Of a stretch of 64,000 bases of DNA, positions 10,661 through 51,257 are shown one piece after another. This stretch comes from Nitrosopumilaceae archaeon (lineage in GTDB: Archaea > Thermoproteota > Nitrososphaeria > Nitrososphaerales > Nitrosopumilaceae). The notes beneath the pieces were generated by a model. That model ran no database searches. It was not told where the DNA came from and saw only the letters and a list, made by a program, of their open reading frames with translations. The position numbers were made by a program, and so were the translations under genes. The stretch is taken from the NCBI GenBank assembly GCA_965208905.1, contig OZ242365.1, positions 896,001 to 960,000 on the forward strand. The letters run 5' to 3'. The stretch's first letter is position 1, and each line of letters opens with the position of its first letter.

Positions 10661-12304
10661 GGTTCCTCCCGCAAAGTCGGGTGATTACACCCCCGCCATG
10701 CGGGATAGTCTGTCGGCCCAGTTGCTCCAGCAACCCTGTATGAGTGGTGTGGGATCGAGTATTACATCCACACCACGACGGACTTCGCCCAGACTGGCCG
10801 AAACCTGACGACCATACCGGGATACGGCGCTTGTTCGCCGTATGTTCTCCACTGCATTGACGTCGCGATCTACGCCAACTGTACAACAGTGGGTGCAGTC
10901 TTTTTTATGATAAGTTCCAGTTAGTGGGGTTCTACATACAGCACATAGCTTGGATGTGTTGTGTGGGCGCATATGTAATGCCTCCACTCCCAAAAATTGG
11001 GACTTTTCATAAATTAAATTCGATGCTTTCCGCATCATGGCAGAATATAATCTGCGACGCATATTATGGAAATCCTCCAACATCACCAAGCACCCGGATT
11101 GTGCGGCCCACTGTGCTATACATAATGCATCCCAAACTTCCCATTCTTCTATCCAACATCACCAAGCACCCGGATTGTGCGGCCCACTGTGCTATACATA
11201 ATGCTATTACATTCAGCACGTTCGTGGCGGCGCACGGCTTTGGCCACCCTGCGTTTTTTATCATTCTTTTTTGACTTTGTGTGGTTATGCGGTATGCTCA
11301 ATATGCATCTGCTCATCTGCCTCTTTATTTCGGCGGCCTTCTTGTGTTTGCCCTCCCTCTTGAGTTTATTGTATCTGCGTTTGAGTTTGCTGTGTAACTT
11401 GTGACCACCATGTGTGACTTGTTGCCTTTCTCTGCGCTCCTCTTTTTTGTGTACAACGCGCCTTCCGGTACGTGCCGCATATGCGATATTATCATGTGTA
11501 CGTGTATACGTATTGTTTGCATCCGCAGTCTTTGCCTCCTCAATGGCCTGTATGGTATCGGATAGATCAAACCGTACCATCGTGTTTTTATCACCTACGG
11601 TGATGTTCTTTTCATTGATGTCTATGCCAATTACATCCCTTGGTGTACCGCCCACATACCCCACATCCGTAAGTAGTTCAATAATCTCTGACTTGCCGTG
11701 TGGGTGGGGGTTTTCAACCTTTGGTACTTTGTTGTAATATGTAATTGTATATGTGGTTGGCGTGATCCACAACTCACCTAGTTCATTTTGTCCTATTCTG
11801 CGTACCACATCTGAAGAGACGGGAATTGCTATCATGTGTCGGTGTTTTGATGAGCCAACATTTGCAACAGCCATATATCCACCCGCTATCGGATTCAGTC
11901 TCCAATCTTGGTTTTTCAACTTTACAACCGGATTACGAAATATAGGCTCAGACACCTTCATGCCCTGCGCAGTCTTTGTTTTGTGCGTTTTATAGGCGAC
12001 GACCCCGTCCCGTATGGCGGTCTGCGTTATAGATGAACGTACTTTGGGGTCAGGGCCGCGCATTGTACTATACATCAATGCATTAACACCATAGGTATCC
12101 TTTCCCGTATTATTCGCTATAATGTACGCCACCTCTGCCACCTTCCTGACATGTTCAAACACATGCCGCATACCCAAATTTTTTGTGAGTGGGCGCGTTA
12201 TAGCCCTGCTATTTTTTACTGATGCCACTACATAGTACGGTTCAATGGTGTATTTAACATCATCCAACACACAACAACCACCACCCGTCCTTGCGGGAGG
12301 AACC
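10661..12304 (-). mobile_element. TIR-bounded non-autonomous element carrying tnpB group A, 8-bp TSD TAGTTCTG
   Basis: TIRs at 10661-10683 and 12282-12304; TAGTTCTG at 10653-10660 and 12305-12312. Confidence 0.93.
10685..12270 (-). pseudogene. tnpB: tnpB group A, frameshifted and internally rearranged
   Basis: Split ORFs 11149-12270, 11064-11264 and 10685-11089 match the intact 49678-51231 copy; 53-bp duplication at 11076-11128/11152-11204. Confidence 0.9.
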
Positions 12305-17844: not shown

Positions 17845-19398
17845 GGGAATTATATGGAACAGTGAACATTGGATGCTCATTCAAGTATGGAAACATGTGG
17901 TACATGACCACATACAACTTTATATCTGAAATATCATAATATATCATGCAGACCAAGAAAAACATAATCTATAGAACCCACAAATACAGGTTAAAGACCA
18001 ACAGTAATATCACATCATATGTTGAAAACCTAGAGGCCGAAAACCGTATGTGGGTTGAACTTGGCGTTATGGCACGCAACCTAAACGTACCGTTCACGGC
18101 CGGCAGCAGTCCTGACCCATACCCCCGAAGTATACTGAGGTGCGTTACGGTTGCTAAAGATATGATGGCGGAATGGGAGAACGTCAGTCCTAAATCAATA
18201 TCCATGATTCGCGGCGCAATACTGGCAGGTATTGAGATGAAGGACTGCAAACATCTTAAGGACGGTAAAATCTATCCGATATTCTTTCTTGGTGCGCCAA
18301 AACAAATTAAACATAATATGATATGGTTTACGAAATCCAACGTGCAATTCAGTATAGTACGGGGACGACTGCCCGACGGTACAACAATAGCATCACACAA
18401 AATAGTTGACATAACGAATGATGCAGACCGTAGGCGCGGCCACCGCCAATTCGAACTACACCTAACTATACAAGAACGCATCCCGGATAGAAAGATAACC
18501 AGTCTGACCGCTGGCGTTGATATGGGTAAGTTAACAGCATACGTAGCCTTATCGGACGGCACTACCCGCGTTCTTAGATTATATGATACGGAGATAAACA
18601 AACACATCAGAAAACTTCAATCAGAACGTGACAGGTGCACACATAACAGCAACAAATGGAATAGGATAAACAATCGCATTAGGCGGCAACGCAAGGTATT
18701 GTACAACTGGCAACTAAACGAATATAGACACTTTTGTAAAAAACTGTGTGTGGATTGTGATTTGATAAAATTCGAGAATCTTAACCTGATAAATATAACC
18801 CGCAAGGGAGGTGGCAGGATAAAAGGTAAGAACCGCACACTAAAAGAGAGTAAGGCCGGTGAGGTCCGTGATTGGTGTGTCAAGAAAGCACCCGAATATA
18901 ACACGGAAATAAGAGAGGTTAGACCACATAACACATCCAAAAAATGCCATATATGTCAGAGTAAAAACACTGAACGTTATGGCGGTTTTAAGACATGGCA
19001 TAATGACAAAATCATATATGAAAATTGGAGCCATAACCGAAAGTTCAAATGTAAAAATTGTGGCAACCTCACACACGCCGACTATAATGGTGCTTTCAAC
19101 ATCATGTATGGTCACGATAATAATTATAACAATAATTACGATTACACAAAACCAAACTCGAGACGCGCCCAGAAGGCAAGTCGTTTGTGTATAAAGTCCG
19201 GGTCGGACTTGAGGGACAGGATAAATCTACGCAACCGCACGCCCCCACCGGTTGTAAATGACTGGCAGGTAGTAAAGACCGCACTTCCCAAAAGGGAGAG
19301 CGCGCCAACCAAACACACCCTGAATGGTGTTGACAACACTCAACACCAACGAAAATTATCTCTGAATGAACATGTGTTCACTTAAAGATGTAATTCCC
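17845..19398 (+). mobile_element. TIR-bounded non-autonomous element carrying tnpB group B, 8-bp TSD ATTTGAAC
   Basis: Left end GGGAATTATATGGAACAGTGAACA..; right end reverse complement GGGAATTACATCTTTAAGTGAACA..; ATTTGAAC at 17837-17844 and 19399-19406. Confidence 0.88.
17946..19385 (+). CDS. tnpB: TnpB-family RNA-guided endonuclease (group B)
   Basis: RTHKYRL N-terminus; RuvC AGVDMG / FENL / HADYNGAFNI; Zn finger CHIC..CKNC; TTTATA promoter upstream. Confidence 0.9.
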   Translation: MQTKKNIIYRTHKYRLKTNSNITSYVENLEAENRMWVELGVMARNLNVPFTAGSSPDPYPRSILRCVTVAKDMMAEWENVSPKSISMIRGAILAGIEMKDCKHLKDGKIYPIFFLGAPKQIKHNMIWFTKSNVQFSIVRGRLPDGTTIASHKIVDITNDADRRRGHRQFELHLTIQERIPDRKITSLTAGVDMGKLTAYVALSDGTTRVLRLYDTEINKHIRKLQSERDRCTHNSNKWNRINNRIRRQRKVLYNWQLNEYRHFCKKLCVDCDLIKFENLNLINITRKGGGRIKGKNRTLKESKAGEVRDWCVKKAPEYNTEIREVRPHNTSKKCHICQSKNTERYGGFKTWHNDKIIYENWSHNRKFKCKNCGNLTHADYNGAFNIMYGHDNNYNNNYDYTKPNSRRAQKASRLCIKSGSDLRDRINLRNRTPPPVVNDWQVVKTALPKRESAPTKHTLNGVDNTQHQRKLSLNEHVFT

Positions 19399-19480
19399 AT
19401 TTGAACAGATTTTGGAGCAGCAAAAGTCTCATCTGAGATATACCCCACCGTTAATAAACAAGATGCACAACTGCTTTATC

Positions 19481-20761
19481 ATGGCTATATCAACAGAGGT
19501 GTCTGCGCAGCTATACGATGAATCTGTCGGTGTCATTCCCGGCGGGGTAAACAGTCCTGTCCGACGCTATGACCCATACCCCTTCTTTGCATCAAAGTCT
19601 GATGGGTGCAATATATGGGATGTTGATGGTAACAGATTCATTGATTTGTGTAACGGGTATGGTTCGATGTTGCTGGGACACAGATATGATGATGTCATAC
19701 AGGCAGTTATTGCGCAGCTAAAGAGAGGCACATTATACTGTACTCCCACACAACTTGAAACTACACTGTCAAGTCTGATTGCAGAGAGTTATGCCTCCAT
19801 TGATATGGCGCGAGCTGTCAACACCGGCAGTGAGGCCACAATGACCGCTGTGCGATTGGCACGTGGTTACACTGAAAATACCAAGGTGGTAACATTTGAA
19901 GGTGGCTATCATGGGGCCCATGATTCAGTACTGGTAAAGGCCGGTAGTGGTTCTGCCACATTACCTACATCCAAAGGTGTACTTTCACAGACCACAGAGC
20001 AGACACTAGTTGCCAAATACAACGATACAGAGGGGTTTGCAGATGTTGTAGAGTCCTCTGAGGATGTGGCTGCTGTAATAATGGAGCCTGTAATGGCAAA
20101 TATGGGACTCATACTGCCTGACAAAAAATTTCTGGATGCGGTACGCCACATCACAAAACAGAGAGGCATAGTACTGATCTTTGATGAGGTGGTGACCGGC
20201 TTTCGAGTATCTGATGGTGGAGCCCAGAGATACTTTGGAGTTACACCAGATATCACAACACTGGCAAAGGCTCTGGGAAATGGCTTTGGTGTTGCCGCAG
20301 TGGGAGGCAGGCGAGATATAATGGAGATGCTAGCCCCACTAGGCGATGTCTATCAGGCCAGCACATTTGCTGGAAACCCTGTTGCCACTACTGCTGCTAT
20401 ATCATCCATACGTGCCATGAAAAGTATGGGCAGCAAGCTATACGATACACTTGATGTATACTGCACAAGGATATCTAACACAATACATGATGTGGCTGCA
20501 GATAATAAAATACCACATAGAGTACACCATATATCCTCAATGTTTCAGGTATTCTTTAGTGAGGAGGATGTATATGATTATGCGACTGCTAAAAAATCTG
20601 ACACTGTAAAATTTAAACAACTATTTAATTTATTATTAAATAGAGGTGTGTTTATTCCGCCATCTCAATTTGAAACTGCATTTTTGTCCGGAGCCATGAC
20701 TGATGATGACATTAATGATATAGTGACTGCGTATACTGAGTCGATGGAGGCGTTAGCATAA
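19481..20761 (+). CDS. hemL: glutamate-1-semialdehyde 2,1-aminomutase
   Basis: PGGVNSPVR, FEGGYHG, FDEVVTGFR, PPSQFE. Confidence 0.96.
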   Translation: MAISTEVSAQLYDESVGVIPGGVNSPVRRYDPYPFFASKSDGCNIWDVDGNRFIDLCNGYGSMLLGHRYDDVIQAVIAQLKRGTLYCTPTQLETTLSSLIAESYASIDMARAVNTGSEATMTAVRLARGYTENTKVVTFEGGYHGAHDSVLVKAGSGSATLPTSKGVLSQTTEQTLVAKYNDTEGFADVVESSEDVAAVIMEPVMANMGLILPDKKFLDAVRHITKQRGIVLIFDEVVTGFRVSDGGAQRYFGVTPDITTLAKALGNGFGVAAVGGRRDIMEMLAPLGDVYQASTFAGNPVATTAAISSIRAMKSMGSKLYDTLDVYCTRISNTIHDVAADNKIPHRVHHISSMFQVFFSEEDVYDYATAKKSDTVKFKQLFNLLLNRGVFIPPSQFETAFLSGAMTDDDINDIVTAYTESMEALA

Positions 20762-27820: not shown

Positions 27821-28717
27821 TTGACTGCTGATGTGAGCAAAGACATAGAAAACGTGGAGACAGATGTAACTGATTCTGTCACTGAAACAGACGCAAACTT
27901 GGATGCGACTGCAGAACCGGCAACTGACACAACACCTGATGATGTGATTGAACCTGATATGTCTGCTGCAGAACCTAGTGATGCTGACATTGAGACAGAC
28001 CAGTTGAGCAAGGATTCGGGTATAGAGTACGATGATTCTGCAGAACCTAGTGATGCTGACATTGAGACAGACCAGTTGAGCAAGGATTCGGGTATAGAGT
28101 CCGATGATGCTGACATTGAGACAGACCAGTTGAGCAAGGATTTGGGTATAGAGTCCGATGATGCTGCAGAACCCGACCCAAAAAAACCCCGTGAATTATC
28201 CGAGGAGGCGCGTGCTAAAATTGATGCTATGATCGCAGATGGAAGACTTGATGATGACTTTGGCGATGGACAGCCTGCAGTTATAGCTGATAAACCTGAA
28301 AAATGGGGCATAGCCCACATCTTTAGTAGTTTTAACAATACAATAATACATTTGACTGACCTTACGGGTGCTGAAACCATAGCCATAAGCTCTGGCGGAC
28401 AGCACTCTAATGCAGATAGATATGAGTCATCCCCATTTGCCGCCATGAAGGCAGCCAATGCGGTGGTAGATGTTGCACGTGCTAGAGGGTTTACAGGATT
28501 TCACATTCGCGTCCGTGCAGTTGGTGGCGTGGGCTCTCGAGTTCCAGGACCTGGTGCGCAGGCAGCCATTAGGGCACTGGCAAGGGCCACATCAAACAAA
28601 GATGATGATCCAGATTCTGGACTGGGTGCATTCCGTATAGGCCGTATAGATGATGTCACACCAATTCCTCATGATACCACTAGGAAGAAAGGCGGAAAAC
28701 GCGGAAGACGAGTCTAA
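27821..28717 (+). CDS. rps11: 30S ribosomal protein S11 with long acidic N-terminal extension
   Basis: [46 protein letters not shown]. Confidence 0.95.
27966..28170 (+). repeat. in-frame tandem repeats in rps11 (periods 72 and 54 bp)
   Basis: Core TGATGCTGACATTGAGACAGACCAGTTGAGCAAGGATT.GGGTATAGAGT at 27979, 28051 and 28105. Confidence 0.92.
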
Positions 28718-28821
28718 CAGGTTTGTCTCTAGAACTGTTTCTTGAGTTGTCAATATGTCCTATATCTGTGGTTAAACTCGGTTCCTACTGCAAGCACGGG
28801 GGTTCCCACACCTACAATACA

Positions 28822-30216
28822 TTACACGTCACGCCAGAGGACGACGGTGCATGACACATCTCGTTCCCCGGTCTGTGCTTGACGTTTCTCAGGGGAGCTA
28901 ACGCAAGAACCCTCCACGTCCAGACACCCCTTAACATGGGTGCTGCCGGTATTGTCCGGCAAGTTTCGTAAGTTTAGTTGACCATGTCTGGCCCTCGGGC
29001 CGAGTTTCTTCAGCCCCACATCCTCTATGTTTGAGCCCGCATTACAGTCGGCATGATACCTGTAGCCACACTTTTTACACAAGAACCGTCTACCATCCCG
29101 GTTATCTTTATGTGTATAACCGCACGAGTAGCACCGTTGGCTTGTATACGCTGCCGCAACCCAAATTATCTCTCCAGCCAACTTGTACGCCAATAGAGCG
29201 GCGAGCAGCCCCCAGCACTGCTCTAGGATGGCCTTATTGAGACCAGATTTTTGCGCAACGTTCTTGCCGGGTTTTTCTTTGGTACCTTTGACGGACTTTG
29301 CCATATTTTGTATGGGTAGATTCTCCATGGCTGCATGTGTGGTACTGTCCGATATAACGCGTGATATTTTATGCGCGGTGGTCTTTCGAATATTTGCGGC
29401 TTTGCGTTTGTTCTTGGCGGCACGTTTACTGGCTTTGGCCCACCGTCGGGAGCCGGGCTTGCGATTCGTATAATTGGGTTTATGCCTGCGCGAGGCTATC
29501 TTTTGCGCCTTAGAGGCTGTTTTTTCGGCGTTATTCATGCGACGTGTGACCTTTTCGGGTACCATTATTACACAGTCAGGTGTGGCCACATTACCGACAT
29601 TCCGGTCTATGCCAATAACGGTCTGCTCGGTCACGGTTGGCTTCTCGTCTGGTACATCACAAGATATGGTAATCCTCCACCCACCATCCGGTAGTTGAAA
29701 TAGTTGCGCGGTCTTGTATCGGTAATTCAGGACGGGAAACTCCCGAGACAGTTTAACCTCGCCCATCTTGGCTATCTTGATTGTACGTGTATCGGTGAAG
29801 CGCGCTTGGCCGACGGTGCCATCATGCGTTATTATAAACGGGATGGAGATTCGCTCACCGTGTCGTTTAAAGTGTGGTTCACCAAACTCCGCCTTAGGTT
29901 TGATGTCAGCAGCCTTCAGCCTCTCTGTTTCCACATATTGGTCATAATGCCTTCCCAAGTCATATAATATTTGGCGCGTCACCCCGGATATAGACTGACG
30001 CAGCCAACACGGACCCGAACGGTTGCGCAAGTCCGTATACCAGGCGTTTATCCTACCCTGTGTGGTGTTGACCCTTCCAGCTCGACGGTACTCCTCCTTG
30101 AAGGTTTCCAATAATTTGTTATACACGTACCTGTCCATGCCGGCCTGTCTGGCCAACATCTCCTTCTTGAACCCTTTACGGAATCTAACGCCGAATGTGT
30201 ATGTACGTAGTACCAT
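28822..30216 (-). CDS. tnpB: TnpB-family RNA-guided endonuclease (group C, IS605 OrfB-like)
   Basis: HTH-like N-terminus; GIDRNV, MENL, KPGKNVAQKSGLNKAI, YTSQRCYSCG..CKKCG..HADCNA; TTTAAA promoter upstream. Confidence 0.95.
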   Translation of the reverse strand: MVLRTYTFGVRFRKGFKKEMLARQAGMDRYVYNKLLETFKEEYRRAGRVNTTQGRINAWYTDLRNRSGPCWLRQSISGVTRQILYDLGRHYDQYVETERLKAADIKPKAEFGEPHFKRHGERISIPFIITHDGTVGQARFTDTRTIKIAKMGEVKLSREFPVLNYRYKTAQLFQLPDGGWRITISCDVPDEKPTVTEQTVIGIDRNVGNVATPDCVIMVPEKVTRRMNNAEKTASKAQKIASRRHKPNYTNRKPGSRRWAKASKRAAKNKRKAANIRKTTAHKISRVISDSTTHAAMENLPIQNMAKSVKGTKEKPGKNVAQKSGLNKAILEQCWGLLAALLAYKLAGEIIWVAAAYTSQRCYSCGYTHKDNRDGRRFLCKKCGYRYHADCNAGSNIEDVGLKKLGPRARHGQLNLRNLPDNTGSTHVKGCLDVEGSCVSSPEKRQAQTGERDVSCTVVLWRDV

Positions 30217-30481
30217 TAGCGTATAGTACGGTCCACATGTTTAAAAAGATAGTTGAGGTGTGATATATGGCACCCGTCCTTGCGGGAGGAACCAGCGTTG
30301 AGGTTCCTCCCGCAAGGACGGGTGGTGGGGTAATTGTTTAGTCACTTTACGACTAGTGATTTTTGTACCAGATTGGGTCAAAATCGTCCCCGATTGCCGG
30401 CATCTTGAGAGTGGTGTTGAAAAGTTACGTAATTGGTTAAGAAATCTTCTCCTATGATCTTAAATAATATGATAAATTGGA

Positions 30482-31650
30482 GTATGTATGGGACAGAAGA
30501 ACACCCGCAAGCCCCGGAATGGCAGGGCCTCGGGGAATGGTATAACGCGCCGCGGCTTCACATATACCAGAAGGGCGACCAGATCAAGACCCTGACCGGG
30601 AATCGTTGGGGCGTGGCCTCCCAGAGTGAGAATGTGTGGTATCGTGTATAGTTTGCGGACAAGAGCCCCACATGCGAGTGCGCTTACCACACCACCGGGA
30701 ATGGGTGCCGCGACATAGCACATGGCTGCGGTCGAGCACTATCTACTCGTATAGTCCGAGACCGCCCTCGGCAAGAATATCGAAATCAACGAGCATAAAC
30801 TGATGTGTCCAAAGTGCAAGGAAACAAAGTACCCCCGCGACGGATGGTATTGCGGCAAGCACAAAAAGAGGCAGAGGTACAAGTGTACCAAATGCGGGCG
30901 GCGGTTCGCAGGACAACCTGGGCTTTGAGTACCGACAGGTGCCGCGCCTGTACATCACGCTGGCCCTGATATTGTCGGGGATAGGGATGTCGGTGACCAA
31001 CACCCAAATGGCGCTCGGCCACCTGGGTGTAAAGGTGCACGTGGACACTACACCCAGGATACTGGAGCACTATTTTGAGGTGGTGCAAAGTACCCAGAGA
31101 CCATCAAGCCTCCGTGCGTGGGGGACAAGTGGGGCTGCGAGGGGAAGCACCAGAAGGTCCGCGGCAGGGAGTTATACGTCACGGTCATTATGTGTATCTC
31201 CACCCAATTCATACTGGCATTGAACACGACGCCCACCAAAAAGGGGTACGACACCGTCCCCCTACTGCAGAAGGCCCGAAATATGGCGGGGAAGGTTCTC
31301 AGGCTGTTCATTACAGACGGTACACACCAGTACCATGTGGCCTTCAAGAAGGTATTCCTCACGCTGAAGGGCCTCAGATGTATACACATACGCGACATCC
31401 ACATCCGGAACTTCATCTGCAACACCAACAAGCAGGAGCGGCTCAACGGAGAGCTGGCAGGCCACCATACGGTACGCCCGCGGCATAAACAGAGAAGAGT
31501 CGCCGATATTCCGCATGGCGATTATACGCCACAACTACATTAAACCCCACGGCGGCATAATGTACAGGACGCCGGCAGAGGCCGCTGGCATGGACATACG
31601 CGGCTCCAACATATGGCTGACGCTCATACAGAGTGCTGTAGCCGTCTGAG
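30482..31650 (+). pseudogene. IS6-family (IS240-type DDE) transposase with SWIM-like and Zn-ribbon N-terminus, disrupted
   Basis: CECAYH (SWIM-like), CPKC..QRYKCTKCGRRF, FITDG..Y, NTNKQERLNG, HNYIKPH in shifting frames; internal stop; first catalytic motif reads WGCEG. Confidence 0.8.
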
Positions 31651-31872
31651 GAGCCCCAAACGCCCGACATCGTCGAACAGAATGGATTTTTACCCCCTCA
31701 CCCGTCCTGTTCCGGCAGGACTTTACAAAAAACCGGTCCGAAATGCATCCCGGCGGCCCCTGTATGCCCGGTTTGTACAGGATTGCGGCCCGGATCCAGA
31801 CCATTTAGAGCGACCGCCCGACTTTGCGGGAGGAACCTTAAACTCTAATGTAGCTCAACTAGAGTCTTCATA

Positions 31873-32316
31873 ATGTGGACCATGGATCAGGATGAGACAT
31901 ATTTTCGCATATTTGATTCAGAAAAACGTATCGCTGGATACTTTGATCCCCAATACGGTGAGCATGCCGATGATGATGAAATTGAATTAATGCTTAAAAA
32001 AAAGCACGCTATACCCGGAGGATTTCTTGTCGTCCCAATGATAAAATTTAATCTGTTTGATGCAGACCTAAGTATAGATGTACATACGCTGAAATCCAGA
32101 CTTGAGGAGGTCAACAGATCATTTGCGCGATGGCATAACTACATTCTATCTAAAAACCCACCATTTCATGTAATCCGAATTTCACATACTGATCAGGATA
32201 TGCTCACCATGACACTCCCCATACGATTTCGTAAACCTATACGTTTGGACAAGAAAGACTTGGCCGCTGAACTATCCTTTACGATGGATACCTTTCAGCG
32301 TCTGGGGTTTTTGTAA
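31873..32316 (+). CDS. hypothetical protein
   Basis: Clean 147-aa ORF. Confidence 0.7.
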   Translation: MWTMDQDETYFRIFDSEKRIAGYFDPQYGEHADDDEIELMLKKKHAIPGGFLVVPMIKFNLFDADLSIDVHTLKSRLEEVNRSFARWHNYILSKNPPFHVIRISHTDQDMLTMTLPIRFRKPIRLDKKDLAAELSFTMDTFQRLGFL

Positions 32317-33058
32317 TAATCGACATGGATGGATGTCTATTTAGCATAATGTATGCTATCAGTGATATCACTAGTATTAGCGATGTACTTAGGGGAAACT
32401 CGGGCACTGCTGCATATTCTTCTGACTCTGCTACTAATGTATAGTGCGCTATCTCTAATGTTTGGTCTTTCTCTGGTACTGATACTACAAAGACTCCTTG
32501 ATGTTCTGCTCGTAAATGGTCTAGTTCTGATGGTGCGCGGGCAACTGTTGCTACATTACCATCTCTGTCATATATTGTGGCAACCACGGATATCATATTT
32601 GCGGTAATATCGCCTCTATTGACTATGGTACCAGTTATGAAGAGATCTCCCTGACTACTTCTCTTTAACTCTGCTGATGTAACATCAATAACTTGACTCT
32701 TTGGAGCATGTATGGAGTACTTTGCAGATAGGGAATAATCGACCATGTCGCTCATGCCCGGCTTATACACCACAATATCAAAAGGTCCTTTCATACCTGG
32801 CATTATTGTGTTTATTAGCGACCACCCTTCAGTAGTCAATAACTCTTTACCGTCCATGTCGTATATGGTGGCTTCCACACTGACACGGCCTAGTGGGACC
32901 TCAAGATCATTAAACACCTCGCCTACTATGTGCAGAGAACCATCATGACCAACATAGGCACGATCGTTCTGTATGGTAACATCTGCCCATGCTTGGGGCA
33001 CCATTAATGTTATGGCGGCGAATACTGCAAATATTCCAAGAACGATATACACCTTCAC
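32279..33058 (-). CDS. secreted FxLYD-like domain protein with PEF-CTERM-type sorting signal
   Basis: Signal peptide, two repeats (VGEV.N / ATIYD.DG), C-terminal VPEFP plus TM helix. Confidence 0.8.
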   Translation of the reverse strand: MKVYIVLGIFAVFAAITLMVPQAWADVTIQNDRAYVGHDGSLHIVGEVFNDLEVPLGRVSVEATIYDMDGKELLTTEGWSLINTIMPGMKGPFDIVVYKPGMSDMVDYSLSAKYSIHAPKSQVIDVTSAELKRSSQGDLFITGTIVNRGDITANMISVVATIYDRDGNVATVARAPSELDHLRAEHQGVFVVSVPEKDQTLEIAHYTLVAESEEYAAVPEFPLSTSLILVISLIAYIMLNRHPSMSIITKTPDAERYPS

Positions 33059-49643: not shown

Positions 49644-51257
49644 GGTTCCTCCCGCAAAGTCGGGTGTTGGTTGATGTGTGTTAGATGATGTTAAATACAC
49701 CATTGAACCGTACTGTATAGTGTCATCAGTAAAAAATAGCAGGGCAGTAACACGTCCATACGCAAAAAATTTGGATATGTGGCATGTGTTTGGGCATGTC
49801 AGGAAGGTGGCAGAAGTGGCGTACATTATAGCAAATAACACGGGGAAGGATACCTATGGTGTTAATGCATTGATGTATAGTACAATGCGCGATCCTGACC
49901 CCAAAGTACGTTCATCCATAACGCAGACCGCCATACGGGACGGGGTTGCCGCCCATAAAACGTACAATACGAAGACTGCGCAGGGCATGAAGGTGTCTGA
50001 GCCCGTCTTTCGTAATCCGGTTGTAAAGTTGAAAAACCAAGATTGGAGGCTGAATCCGATAGCGGGTGGATATATGGCTGTTGCAAATGTTGGCTCATCA
50101 AAATATCCACATATGATAGCAATTCCCGTCTCTTCAGATGTGGTACGCAGAATAGGACAAAATGAACTAGGTGAGTTGTGGATCACGCCAACCATATATA
50201 CGATAACATATTACAACAAAGTGCCCAAGGTTGAAAAACCCCACCCATACGGCAAGTCGGAGATTATTGAACTACTTACGGATGTGGGGTATGTGGGCGG
50301 CACACCAAAAGATGTGATTGGCGTTGATATTAATGAAAAGAACATCACCGTAGGTGATAAAAACACGATGGTACGGTTTGATCTATCTAATACCATACAG
50401 GCCATTGAGGAGGCAAAGACTGAGGATGCAAACAATACGTATACACGTATACATGATAATATCACATATGCGGCACGTACCGGAAGGCGCGTTGTACACA
50501 AGAAAGAGGAGGAGCGCAGAGAAAGGCAACAAGTCACACATGGCGGTCCCAAACTATATGGCAAACTCAAACGCAGATACAAGAAACTCAAGAGGGAGGG
50601 CAAACACAAGAAGGCCGCCGAGATAAAGTGGCAGATGAATAAATGCATATTAAACATACAGCATAACCACACAAAGTCAAAAAAGAATGATAAAAAACAC
50701 AGGGTGACTAAAGCCATGCGCCGCCACGAACACGTGCTGAACGTAATAGCATTATGTATAGCACAGTGGGCCGCACAATCCGGGTGTTTGGTTATGTTGG
50801 AGGATTTAACCCATATATCGTATAATTGGCAGAAGGGGGGAAAGTTTGGACGCAGCTTGCGTCGCAGATTATATTCTGCCATGATGCGAAAGGCATCGAA
50901 TTTAATTTATGAAAAGTCCCAATTTTTGGGAGTGGAGGCACTACATATGCGTCCACACAACACATCCAAGTTGTGTGCTGGATGTAGAACCCTACTAACT
51001 GGAACTTATCATAAAAAAGACTGCACCCACTGCCGTATGGTTGGCGTAGACCGAGACGTCAACGCAGTGGAGAACATACGGCGAACAAGCGCCGTATCCC
51101 GGTATGGTCGTAAGGTTTCGACCAGTCTGGGCGAAGTCCGTCGTGGTGTGGATGTAATACTCGATCCCACCCCACTCATACAGGGTTGCTGGAGCAACTG
51201 GGCCGACAGACTATCCCGCGTGGTGATGTGACATCACCCGACTTTGCGGGAGGAACC
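49644..51257 (+). mobile_element. TIR-bounded element carrying intact tnpB group A (no TSD)
   Basis: Perfect 23-bp TIRs at 49644-49666 and 51235-51257; flanks CAGATGCT and CGTCCGCT differ. Confidence 0.9.
49678..51231 (+). CDS. tnpB: TnpB/Cas12f-like RNA-guided endonuclease (group A)
   Basis: RuvC GVDINEKN / MLEDL / DRDVNAVENI; Zn finger CAGC..CTHC; long basic region between RuvC-I and RuvC-II. Confidence 0.88.
   Translation: MLDDVKYTIEPYCIVSSVKNSRAVTRPYAKNLDMWHVFGHVRKVAEVAYIIANNTGKDTYGVNALMYSTMRDPDPKVRSSITQTAIRDGVAAHKTYNTKTAQGMKVSEPVFRNPVVKLKNQDWRLNPIAGGYMAVANVGSSKYPHMIAIPVSSDVVRRIGQNELGELWITPTIYTITYYNKVPKVEKPHPYGKSEIIELLTDVGYVGGTPKDVIGVDINEKNITVGDKNTMVRFDLSNTIQAIEEAKTEDANNTYTRIHDNITYAARTGRRVVHKKEEERRERQQVTHGGPKLYGKLKRRYKKLKREGKHKKAAEIKWQMNKCILNIQHNHTKSKKNDKKHRVTKAMRRHEHVLNVIALCIAQWAAQSGCLVMLEDLTHISYNWQKGGKFGRSLRRRLYSAMMRKASNLIYEKSQFLGVEALHMRPHNTSKLCAGCRTLLTGTYHKKDCTHCRMVGVDRDVNAVENIRRTSAVSRYGRKVSTSLGEVRRGVDVILDPTPLIQGCWSNWADRLSRVVM

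Follow-up and report, generated by a model that had tools for sequence, protein, structure and literature searches.

TnpB has an accepted role in restoring IS605/IS607 elements after their scarless excision, and it has also been found in association with DDE transposases. Altae-Tran et al. (2023; PMC10691335) described six branches of DDE-associated TnpB (DDE-1 to DDE-6) with inverted terminal repeats, reported solo tnpB genes with the same ends as transposase elements and proposed that these are mobilised in trans; in the main text of that paper IS630 is the only partner named. A 2026 review (PMC13565253) lists ISL2, IS630 and IS1031 as partners, calls the prokaryotic pairing of TnpB with DDE transposases rare and asks what its benefit might be. 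For Fanzor, the TnpB homologue of eukaryotic DDE transposons, the same review describes the 5′ target site duplication (TSD) as part of the target-adjacent motif (TAM), and Fanzor guide RNAs are reported to overlap the terminal inverted repeat (TIR), with TAMs that sometimes agree with the insertion site (PMC10530073). Here we describe a 3,058-bp insertion in the single-contig, 2.21-Mb genome (G000) of a Nitrosopumilaceae archaeon, in which a tnpB-carrying element abuts an insertion sequence (IS) with an IS6-like DDE transposase. The insertion lies within a 64,000-nucleotide stretch (the window, G000:C1:896001-960000), and coordinates are window positions unless a genome is given; G000 was compared with nine other genomes of its genus, and its closest relative is G005. 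In compound transposons of the Tn5/Tn10 type the transposase uses the two outermost ends of adjacent TIR elements and leaves one TSD. The present insert is very probably a one-off compound element of this general sort, made of two members of one TIR family, a tnpB carrier and its cognate IS6-like IS, that moved as a unit.

Results

Two abutted elements share a single target site duplication

The insert occupies positions 28780-31837, in the spacer downstream of rps11, and is flanked on both sides by the 8-mer TTAAACTC; the chance of a given 8-mer recurring at a given place is 4^-8. An earlier note on this DNA had reported the octamer directly before the left TIR and directly after the right TIR, and that is where it lies. 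Between the two copies, two complete TIR-bounded units of one TIR family are arranged end to end (element A, which carries tnpB, and element B, which carries a DDE transposase gene), with 8 bp, AGCGTTGA, separating them. The left end of the insert starts GGTTCCTACTGCAAGCACGGG at 28780 and the right arm closes ...GCGGGAGGAACC at 31837. As read from the sequence, the outer arms agree at 16 of 21 positions; the inner arms (30271-30293 and 30302-30324) are 100% complementary over 23 nt, the inner TIR of A matching the left TIR of B at 23/23. The left TIR is not degenerate, as the note had called it, given that the same variant is retained at the tnpB-3′ end of nine examined copies, with at most one changed base in four.

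The 3,058-bp segment entered this site as one unit, in one insertion. In G005 (L057, G005:C1:1049000-1059000) a single TTAAACTC at L057 7101-7108 joins contiguous flanks that are 96.6% and 98.4% identical to those of the insert, and the insert itself is absent. Window positions 28105-28779 correspond to L057 7775-7101 and positions 31838-32322 to L057 7108-6624, so that the two alignments overlap by exactly the 8 bp of TTAAACTC. Similarly, in a 27-kb contig from another study (run X9), position 28771 is joined to 31838 with 8 letters shared and no insert, and the octamer is thus not doubled where the element is missing. The inner and outer 8-mers are different sequences. Had a second element inserted next to a first, the outer 8-mer would recur in the middle, where instead the unrelated AGCGTTGA is found; therefore, the single TTAAACTC of the empty sites together with this inner sequence indicates a single event, in line with the earlier proposal that both units moved together as a 3.06-kb element under one TSD.

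Two independent insertions, or recombination between copies, could in principle mimic a single TSD. IS copies can swap flanks by homologous recombination, and one A copy and several copies of a related family (family C, below) do lack matching TSDs. After a second insertion beside the first, the unit would have TTAAACTC or a freshly duplicated 8-mer at its centre, whereas the middle holds the unrelated AGCGTTGA and both outer copies of TTAAACTC are intact; moreover, A and B have only their 23-nt ends in common, which leaves no homology for exchange. We therefore consider this explanation very improbable. An assembly error that joined two repeat ends at the A|B junction (30294-30301) is still less probable. 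A is a multi-copy repeat within which short-read contigs break, and the junction is supported by the assembly and by a short-read contig that extends into A by no more than 30 nt, which is a point against a single compound insertion. Against an artefact, the genome was assembled as a single 2.21-Mb contig, and run X5 yielded a 19,450-nt contig that matches 30264-32300 without differences (from the last 30 nt of A through the 8-mer and the whole of B into the right flank) and a 741-nt contig that matches 28300-28853 without differences; X5 is possibly the source data and hence not independent.

An intact tnpB carrier and a decayed insertion sequence

The tnpB of element A is predicted to be functional on the strength of its intact frame, its D-E-D triad and the selection acting on it. 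The 464-aa protein encoded on the minus strand scores 157.8 bits with NCBIfam guided_TnpB (cut-off 100) and 120 bits with IS200_TnpB, under that model's cut-off of 425, and its Pfam matches are OrfB_IS605 and Cas12f1-like_TNB. Its RuvC D/E/D motifs, GIDRN, AMENL and HADCNAGSNI, align with those of the solved TnpB structures 9j09, 9yyg and 8h1j, and the protein shows the TnpB fold with RuvC D-E-D triad and zinc finger. The intact gene and its own TATA box had both been read correctly in the earlier note. In addition to the copy in the composite, G000 holds seven more full-length A copies at 89-94% identity, one interrupted copy, one 355-bp deletion derivative and fragments. The seven other copies have their own 8-bp TSDs, matching at 8/8 positions in four, 7/8 in two and 0/8 in one. 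The tnpB frame is open in four of the eight full-length copies, and the ratio of nonsynonymous to synonymous substitution rates (dN/dS) among the four intact genes is 0.16-0.21. The tnpB copies of this family are separated by a dS of about 0.3 and are under strong purifying selection, and none of the six matching TSDs of the full-length copies equals the TSD of either of the two A copies with the same TIR type (type 1, below) examined in G005. Because such divergence exists within one genome, yet no TSD is common to the G000 and G005 copies, the data suggest that A insertions are drawn from an old, diverse pool rather than from one recent burst.

Element B is, on sequence evidence, a real IS. 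It is the only full-length copy in G000 and is disrupted by frameshifts and stops. Indeed, in a tblastn comparison with the intact protein of G009, the transposase can be followed only across frames 1, 3 and 2, with five stops in the longest frame, which agrees with the divergently oriented, broken DDE transposase that had been noted before. The relatives of B have its TIRs and are 76-79% identical to it; they are flanked by 8-bp TSDs and encode intact transposases of 385-388 aa. B-type DNA was found in seven of the nine other genomes of the genus and in none of the 31 searched genomes of other genera. All 12 B-type elements examined in relatives have the same TIR and seven have perfect 8-bp TSDs; these seven also carry the longest frames of the 12 (385-427 aa), and in L074 and L080 the longest frame lies on the strand opposite to the transposase.

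The family assignment of B rests on one of its intact relatives, the 388-aa G009 protein (L043:1697-2863), rather than on the broken gene. This protein combines a Cys/His motif, read as SWIM-like, with a zinc ribbon and a DDE domain. It scores 31.8 bits with Pfam DDE_Tnp_IS240 (PF13610; gathering score 27), and its best NCBIfam match is transpos_IS6 (E = 1.4e-21, 77 bits, under the model cut-off of 125). IS6-like, the term used in the earlier note, appears to be a fair label, one that also suits the 8-bp TSDs, and we go no further than this because the Pfam model passes its gathering score while the NCBIfam IS6 model stays under its cut-off; full IS6 membership would go beyond these scores. 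Separately, 13 open frames in G000 (356-501 aa; e.g. 158389-159477, 18782-19906 and 1337792-1338886) are 30-35% identical to the B-type transposase. A brute-force search revealed no convincing TIR or TSD around these 13 distant IS6-like frames and no tie to any tnpB family; they could represent domesticated genes or belong to other types of IS.

The earlier note had also taken the composite as the link between tnpB and its presumed mobiliser, which is too strong a statement. A is self-contained, with seven more copies and TSDs of its own, and B-type IS are solo elements in relatives; the link between tnpB and its mobiliser appears to consist of shared ends and not of fusion.

A probable route to the compound element

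The arrangement could have arisen in a few steps. At an earlier site, one element would have inserted into the 8 bp flanking the end of the other, leaving the inner ends abutted with AGCGTTGA between them. An IS6-like transposase would then have used the outermost ends, the tnpB-3′ TIR of A and the right TIR of B, and the whole piece would have moved to the spacer downstream of rps11, duplicating TTAAACTC; the copy of the enzyme that acted and the mode of the move, copy-in or cut-and-paste, are parts of this scheme that we infer. B may have decayed after the move or may already have been defective before it, while tnpB stayed intact. The flanking spacer diverges by about 3-4%, and the number of lesions in B, set against this divergence, does not date its decay.

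G006 provides a precedent for the proposed first step. In this genome a 163-bp miniature inverted-repeat transposable element (MITE) and a B-type IS lie end to end, 8 bp apart (L078, G006:C1:1041700-1043600, positions 87-1696), and the 8-mer of this MITE|TGTTTTTT|IS arrangement is repeated on the outer side of the MITE. Such a repeat on the far side marks an insertion that went into the 8 bp next to an end already in place. By analogy, the A|AGCGTTGA|B junction is best read as having formed in the same way at an earlier site. In addition, G000 contains a second A+B arrangement, a 789-bp relic at 1047821-1048609 that combines A 1-387 with B 691-835 and B 1283-1536 and has the left TIR of A at one end and the right TIR of B at the other.

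Alternatively, the 3-kb unit might be an ancestral autonomous two-gene element from which solo A and solo B were derived, as the single TSD around the unit and a relic that joins the left end of A to the right end of B would allow. This explanation is quite improbable. The unit contains a complete inner pair of ends, complementary at 23/23 positions, with a gap between them exactly as long as one TSD; A copies and B-type IS that occur singly are bounded by TIR pairs and TSDs of their own; the same tnpB clade occurs solo in four TIR types across the genus; and no composite was found in the nine other genomes of the genus, within match lists and a pattern scan.

These surveys also bear on how rare the fusion is. 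The coordinates of A-like and B-like matches in the nine other genomes revealed no adjacent A+B pair. An exact-end pattern scan for abutted ends (GGAACC N6-10 GGTTCC, a pattern blind to TIR types 2-4) revealed no abutted tnpB element and transposase IS among the eight junctions followed up, with two matches in G007, four in G009 and one each in G003 and G001 left out. The pattern matched in six of the ten genomes of the genus, but its reversed control gave matches too, and the only matches resembling real end pairs were the G000 composite, G006:1041943 and G009:1814515, the last with a 7-bp spacing and judged from pattern and flank alone. The paired matches in G009 were rejected because they fall inside a 457-aa frame of a 1.47-kb repeat, as were the G007 ones, which are located within open frames or next to them. 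As for other composite copies, which the earlier note had raised, the match lists and the scan contain no intact one, and the deleted relic of G000 is what there is. Because only this one further A+B relic was found, and no pair in the match lists of the genus or among the followed-up junctions, the A+B fusion is an exceptional accident of end-adjacent insertion, a rare by-product.

Some observations count against a compound element that moved as a unit. G000 contains no donor copy of the composite, and an intact B-type transposase was detected neither in this genome nor among the G005 matches examined. Furthermore, the relic lacks a TSD (2/8) and has lost its inner junction, and because of this it is no proof of a second transposition of the same composite.

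One further candidate near the locus was discarded. In G005, a tnpB element contains a 2.8-kb insert with IS4/5-like and IS630-like transposases, and this proved to be a set of nested insertions rather than a composite of tnpB with a cognate IS. The tnpB element that it splits has type-2 TIRs and the TSD TAATAATC, lies about 480 bp from the site of the composite, and has itself hit the gene matching window positions 31873-32316 (L057 2331-6624).

The coordinates of the composite, its parts and related elements are collected in Table 1. Upstream of the insertion, rps11 (27821-28717, plus strand) encodes an acidic N-terminal extension of about 160 aa with tandem repeats, and the S11 domain is confined to residues 163-294.

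Table 1. Features of the composite locus and family C copies in the window
Feature	Position	Strand	Basis
Left TSD copy, TTAAACTC	28772-28779		Sequence; one copy at the empty sites of G005 and the X9 contig
Element A, 1,514-bp non-autonomous TIR element, sole gene tnpB	28780-30293	-	Seven other full-length copies
TIR of A at the tnpB-3′ end, GGTTCCTACTGCAAGCACGGGGG, serving as outer left end of the composite	28780-28802		Kept across nine copies
42 nt from tnpB stop to element end; 15-bp hairpin with free 3′ GGAACC; proposed last stem of the guide RNA	28780-28821	-	Fold
tnpB, 464 aa, intact, RuvC D-E-D	28822-30216	-	Open frame, profile scores, structure alignment
Candidate omega-RNA scaffold overlapping the tnpB 3′ end	28822-28994	-	Predicted conserved structure
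TATA-like box, TTTTTAAA (minus strand), ~25-30 nt 5′ of the tnpB ATG	30240-30247	-	Sequence; kept in relatives with TIR type 2
TIR of A at the tnpB-5′ end, inner end in the composite	30271-30293		100% complementary to 30302-30324
Inner 8-mer, AGCGTTGA, between abutted ends	30294-30301		Sequence; putative relic of a donor-site TSD
Element B, 1,536-bp IS6-like IS	30302-31837	+	Sole full-length copy in G000
Broken DDE transposase gene (SWIM-like Cys/His motif as read, zinc ribbon, DDE domain)	30488-31649	+	tblastn against the intact G009 protein
Right TIR of B, outer right end of the composite	31815-31837		Sequence comparison
Right TSD copy, TTAAACTC	31838-31845		Sequence; one copy at the G005 empty site
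Candidate TAM, TAAT (ATTA in tnpB sense)	31846-31849	-	NTTR in this place at 17/19 clade-A sites
Family C copy	49644-51257	+
Family C copy, broken	10661-12304	-
Further family C sequence	1-248

tnpB as cargo between DDE-type ends across the genus

In a search of 301 genomes of the class (E <= 1e-50), the tnpB of element A and its relatives (clade A) turned up in four, all of them in this genus. A itself has 21-23-bp TIRs and 8-bp TSDs. Wherever an element end was located, the clade-A gene stops 38-42 nt from an IS6-type terminus, while the TIR differs and falls into four types: type 1, GGTTCCTCCCGCAAGG, in G000 and G005; type 2, GGTTCTCGGACAAACTCTGG, in G005; type 3, GGTTCTTGTGCAAACGCGGG, in G001 and G006, with 9-bp TSDs in 3/4; and type 4, GGTTCTGTTGCAAAC at the tnpB-3′ end, in G009. 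Three short orphans in G000 (G000:C1 1249355-1249512, 238078-238167 and 2196986-2197115) each combine the final 90-160 nt of a tnpB resembling clade A with a type-3-like TIR end, and these pieces are possibly solo guide-RNA remnants.

The TIR family of A and B is also used by family C, elements of about 1.6 kb with 12 paired copies in G000 (13 near-full-length DNA matches). The TSDs of C are perfect in eight of the 12 copies, and in both of its MITE derivatives (2/2). Its 517-aa protein is divergent and TnpB-like, with weak matches to TnpB/Cas12f (E = 7e-7 and 0.004), and its stop codon lies 26 nt from the element end. There are 35 other tnpB-like matches in G000, of which 23 have TIR pairs (at least 16/18) together with a TSD match of at least 5/8, and 14 of those TSDs are perfect. 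The largest tnpB family in G000, with TIRs that begin GGGAATTATATA and 8-bp TSDs (e.g. G000:C1 456223, 340547 and 103109), places its stop codon 5 nt from the element end in all 17 copies analysed. Two elements with TIRs of this family and perfect TSDs (G000:C1 1211856-1213986 and 1043578-1046414) encode open-frame IS1595-type transposases (Pfam DDE_Tnp_IS1595, 1e-40 and 2e-40). A passenger gene, encoding a DNA methylase-HNH fusion, is present in one of these two partner elements. The general rule in this genus appears to be that tnpB is solo cargo between DDE-type TIRs, presumably mobilised in trans.

A one-sided motif outside the TSD of tnpB carriers

When insertion sites are oriented by tnpB and upstream positions are counted from the TSD, the tnpB carriers show a one-sided motif. 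For clade A (n = 19), T occupies position -3 at 19 sites and position -2 at 18, and G or A occupies position -1 at 17, as compared to only two sites with TT at the mirror position (binomial p = 8e-20); NTTR thus stands just 5′ of the upstream TSD in 17/19 sites. For clade C and its MITEs (n = 14), T at -2 and A at -1 are each found at 13 sites, with one mirror TT. The IS1595-type tnpB family (n = 17) has G at -1 in 12 sites and a mirror G in three (p = 4e-5). In the composite the ATTA motif lies beyond the outer end of B and not beside the 5′ TIR of A, and at the relic locus G005 carries ATTG directly before the sequence matching the right flank of the relic. Where the insertion is missing, motif, TSD and tnpB-3′ flank directly adjoin one another, the layout of a TAM plus target.

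The motif might instead reflect a target preference of the DDE transposase, with TnpB having no role in where copies are located. Many DDE elements show weak target preferences, and TT also occurs beside the TSD of transposase-only B-type IS (n = 12), at -3/-2 in 3/12 sites upstream and in 5/12 on the other side, against a background of about 7-12%; such a transposase preference would speak against a TAM. That signal is weak and two-sided, whereas the motif of the clade-A tnpB carriers is near invariant and one-sided (18/19 versus 2/19 at the mirror position). Furthermore, the motif differs between clades A and C despite their common TIR family, as G at -1 is found in 12/19 clade-A sites but in 0/14 sites of clade C, which has a different TnpB (Fisher p = 1.6e-4). 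The clade-A motif holds over three of four TIR types, which presumably depend on different transposases, and the lone type-4 site, L070, lacks it and reads ATCA. Finally, the motif of the composite is found beyond the end of B rather than next to the 5′ TIR of A, and the IS1595-type tnpB family has another one-sided motif (G at -1, 12/17 versus 3/17 mirror). A transposase preference is thus a serious possibility, but one we regard as distinctly short of probable.

A candidate guide RNA and a proposed role for TnpB

If the motif is a TAM, a guide RNA would be expected to read out across the element end, and the 3′ region of tnpB has features that fit this arrangement. The 42-nt tail between the stop codon and the end of element A folds at -16.9 kcal/mol (z = -2.87). 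The 38-42 nt that follow the stop codon are unrelated in sequence among the four TIR types, but in every type they form a hairpin of 10-15 bp with the last 4-7 nt unpaired (z = -2.3 to -3.1 across the TIR types). The last 128-142 nt of tnpB are 83-85% identical to those of the G006 and G009 relatives, that is, between TIR types, as compared to 64-69% for whole elements. A 12-sequence alignment of the tnpB 3′ region contains 46 predicted pairs, six of them with compensatory changes.

From these features we propose, tentatively and with a confidence just short of even, that TnpB carries out omega-RNA-guided cutting of empty alleles, with the TSD and flank as guide and NTTR as TAM. The omega RNA would be made from the conserved 3′ part of the gene and the TIR-embedded hairpin, and would read out over the element end, so that the guide would comprise the 8-bp TSD and the adjoining flank. 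Its target in the empty allele would lie directly 3′ of NTTR, which would act as the TAM. Empty alleles would be cleaved by TnpB and then repaired on the template of the occupied copy, so that the insertion would be spread or maintained. Certain results argue against this model. The alignment fold leaves the 42-nt tail unpaired, the hairpin appearing only when each TIR type is folded alone. Metatranscriptome contigs of X1 and X2, the only RNA runs that matched any of the window, are 90-95% alike to parts of the tnpB body and rps11, and none of them lies on 28702-28969. Rfam returned no family match to the region, the two microRNA matches on the palindrome being chance ones (E = 0.34 and 0.85).

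A broader and somewhat more speculative reading is that in this genus TnpB is standard cargo and an RNA-guided homing drive of TSD-making DDE elements in at least two families, IS6-like and IS1595-type. A variable guide of TSD and flank would be read across the TIR hairpin, with the TAM on the far side of the insertion. Under such a drive the motif would be near invariant and one-sided because only insertions 3′ of a TAM would be driven to fixation.

Discussion

The genome of this archaeon offers a natural test bed for the association of TnpB with DDE transposases. It contains dozens of tnpB-only elements with DDE-type TIRs and 8-bp TSDs, together with cognate transposase elements, empty sites in a close relative, and three one-sided motifs that predict TAMs. 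If these motifs are TAMs, RNA-guided homing could operate with a guide that includes a variable TSD, and the genus would hold compact archaeal nucleases with simple predicted TAMs. The composite, for its part, shows that a tnpB carrier and its mobiliser can become fused, which is a plausible path to autonomous elements that combine tnpB with a DDE transposase.

Each part of the locus resembles a known system and departs from it. Element B shares with the IS6 family (IS26, IS257) the DDE_Tnp_IS240 domain, the 8-bp TSD and ends starting GGTTC; short TIRs with perfect 8-bp TSDs are found in 7 of 12 B-type IS in relatives. The type-4 TIR (GGTTCTGTTGCAAAC...) of the tnpB carriers also resembles classical IS6 ends. 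B differs in its extra N-terminal SWIM-like motif and zinc ribbon, its length of 1.44-1.54 kb and its sub-cut-off NCBIfam IS6 score. Element A resembles the tnpB-only members of IS200/IS605 (the IS1341 group) in being non-autonomous, with a single tnpB and, in the case of A putatively, a 3′-encoded guide RNA. That group has no TIRs and no TSD (PMC13565253), its ends being subterminal hairpins, whereas A has TIRs and TSDs and so falls outside IS200/IS605. As with Fanzor in eukaryotic DDE transposons, a TnpB homologue resides inside TIR/TSD elements; however, a fixed TSD (TA or TTAA) is within the TAM there, whereas here the variable 8-bp TSD would belong to the guide and the motif stands outside the TSD.

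DDE-associated TnpB is already known as a kind, and the present elements resemble those of PMC10691335 in having tnpB between inverted repeats, solo tnpB elements sharing ends and a tnpB 3′ end near the transposon end. Indeed, the inverted repeats around tnpB are shared with a DDE-transposase element of an IS6-like family and, in a second case, of an IS1595-type family. They differ in that the transposase usually resides on an element of its own here, and in that two complete elements make up the fused form. Neither IS6-like or IS1595-type TnpB partners nor the flank motif are named in the main text of PMC10691335 or in PMC13565253, supplements aside, and at the level of titles and opening lines of abstracts the literature yielded no association of TnpB with IS6 or IS1595. 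Within the literature consulted, three features appear to be new, namely the families of the transposase partners, the compound arrangement and a motif that stands on one side only, outside a TSD of variable sequence. As in Tn5/Tn10-type compound transposons, one TSD surrounds the unit and is absent from the inner junction, and the empty site has a single target copy. The composite differs from those transposons in that its units are not copies of the same IS, lie 8 bp apart with no passenger DNA, and include one that is non-autonomous and carries tnpB.

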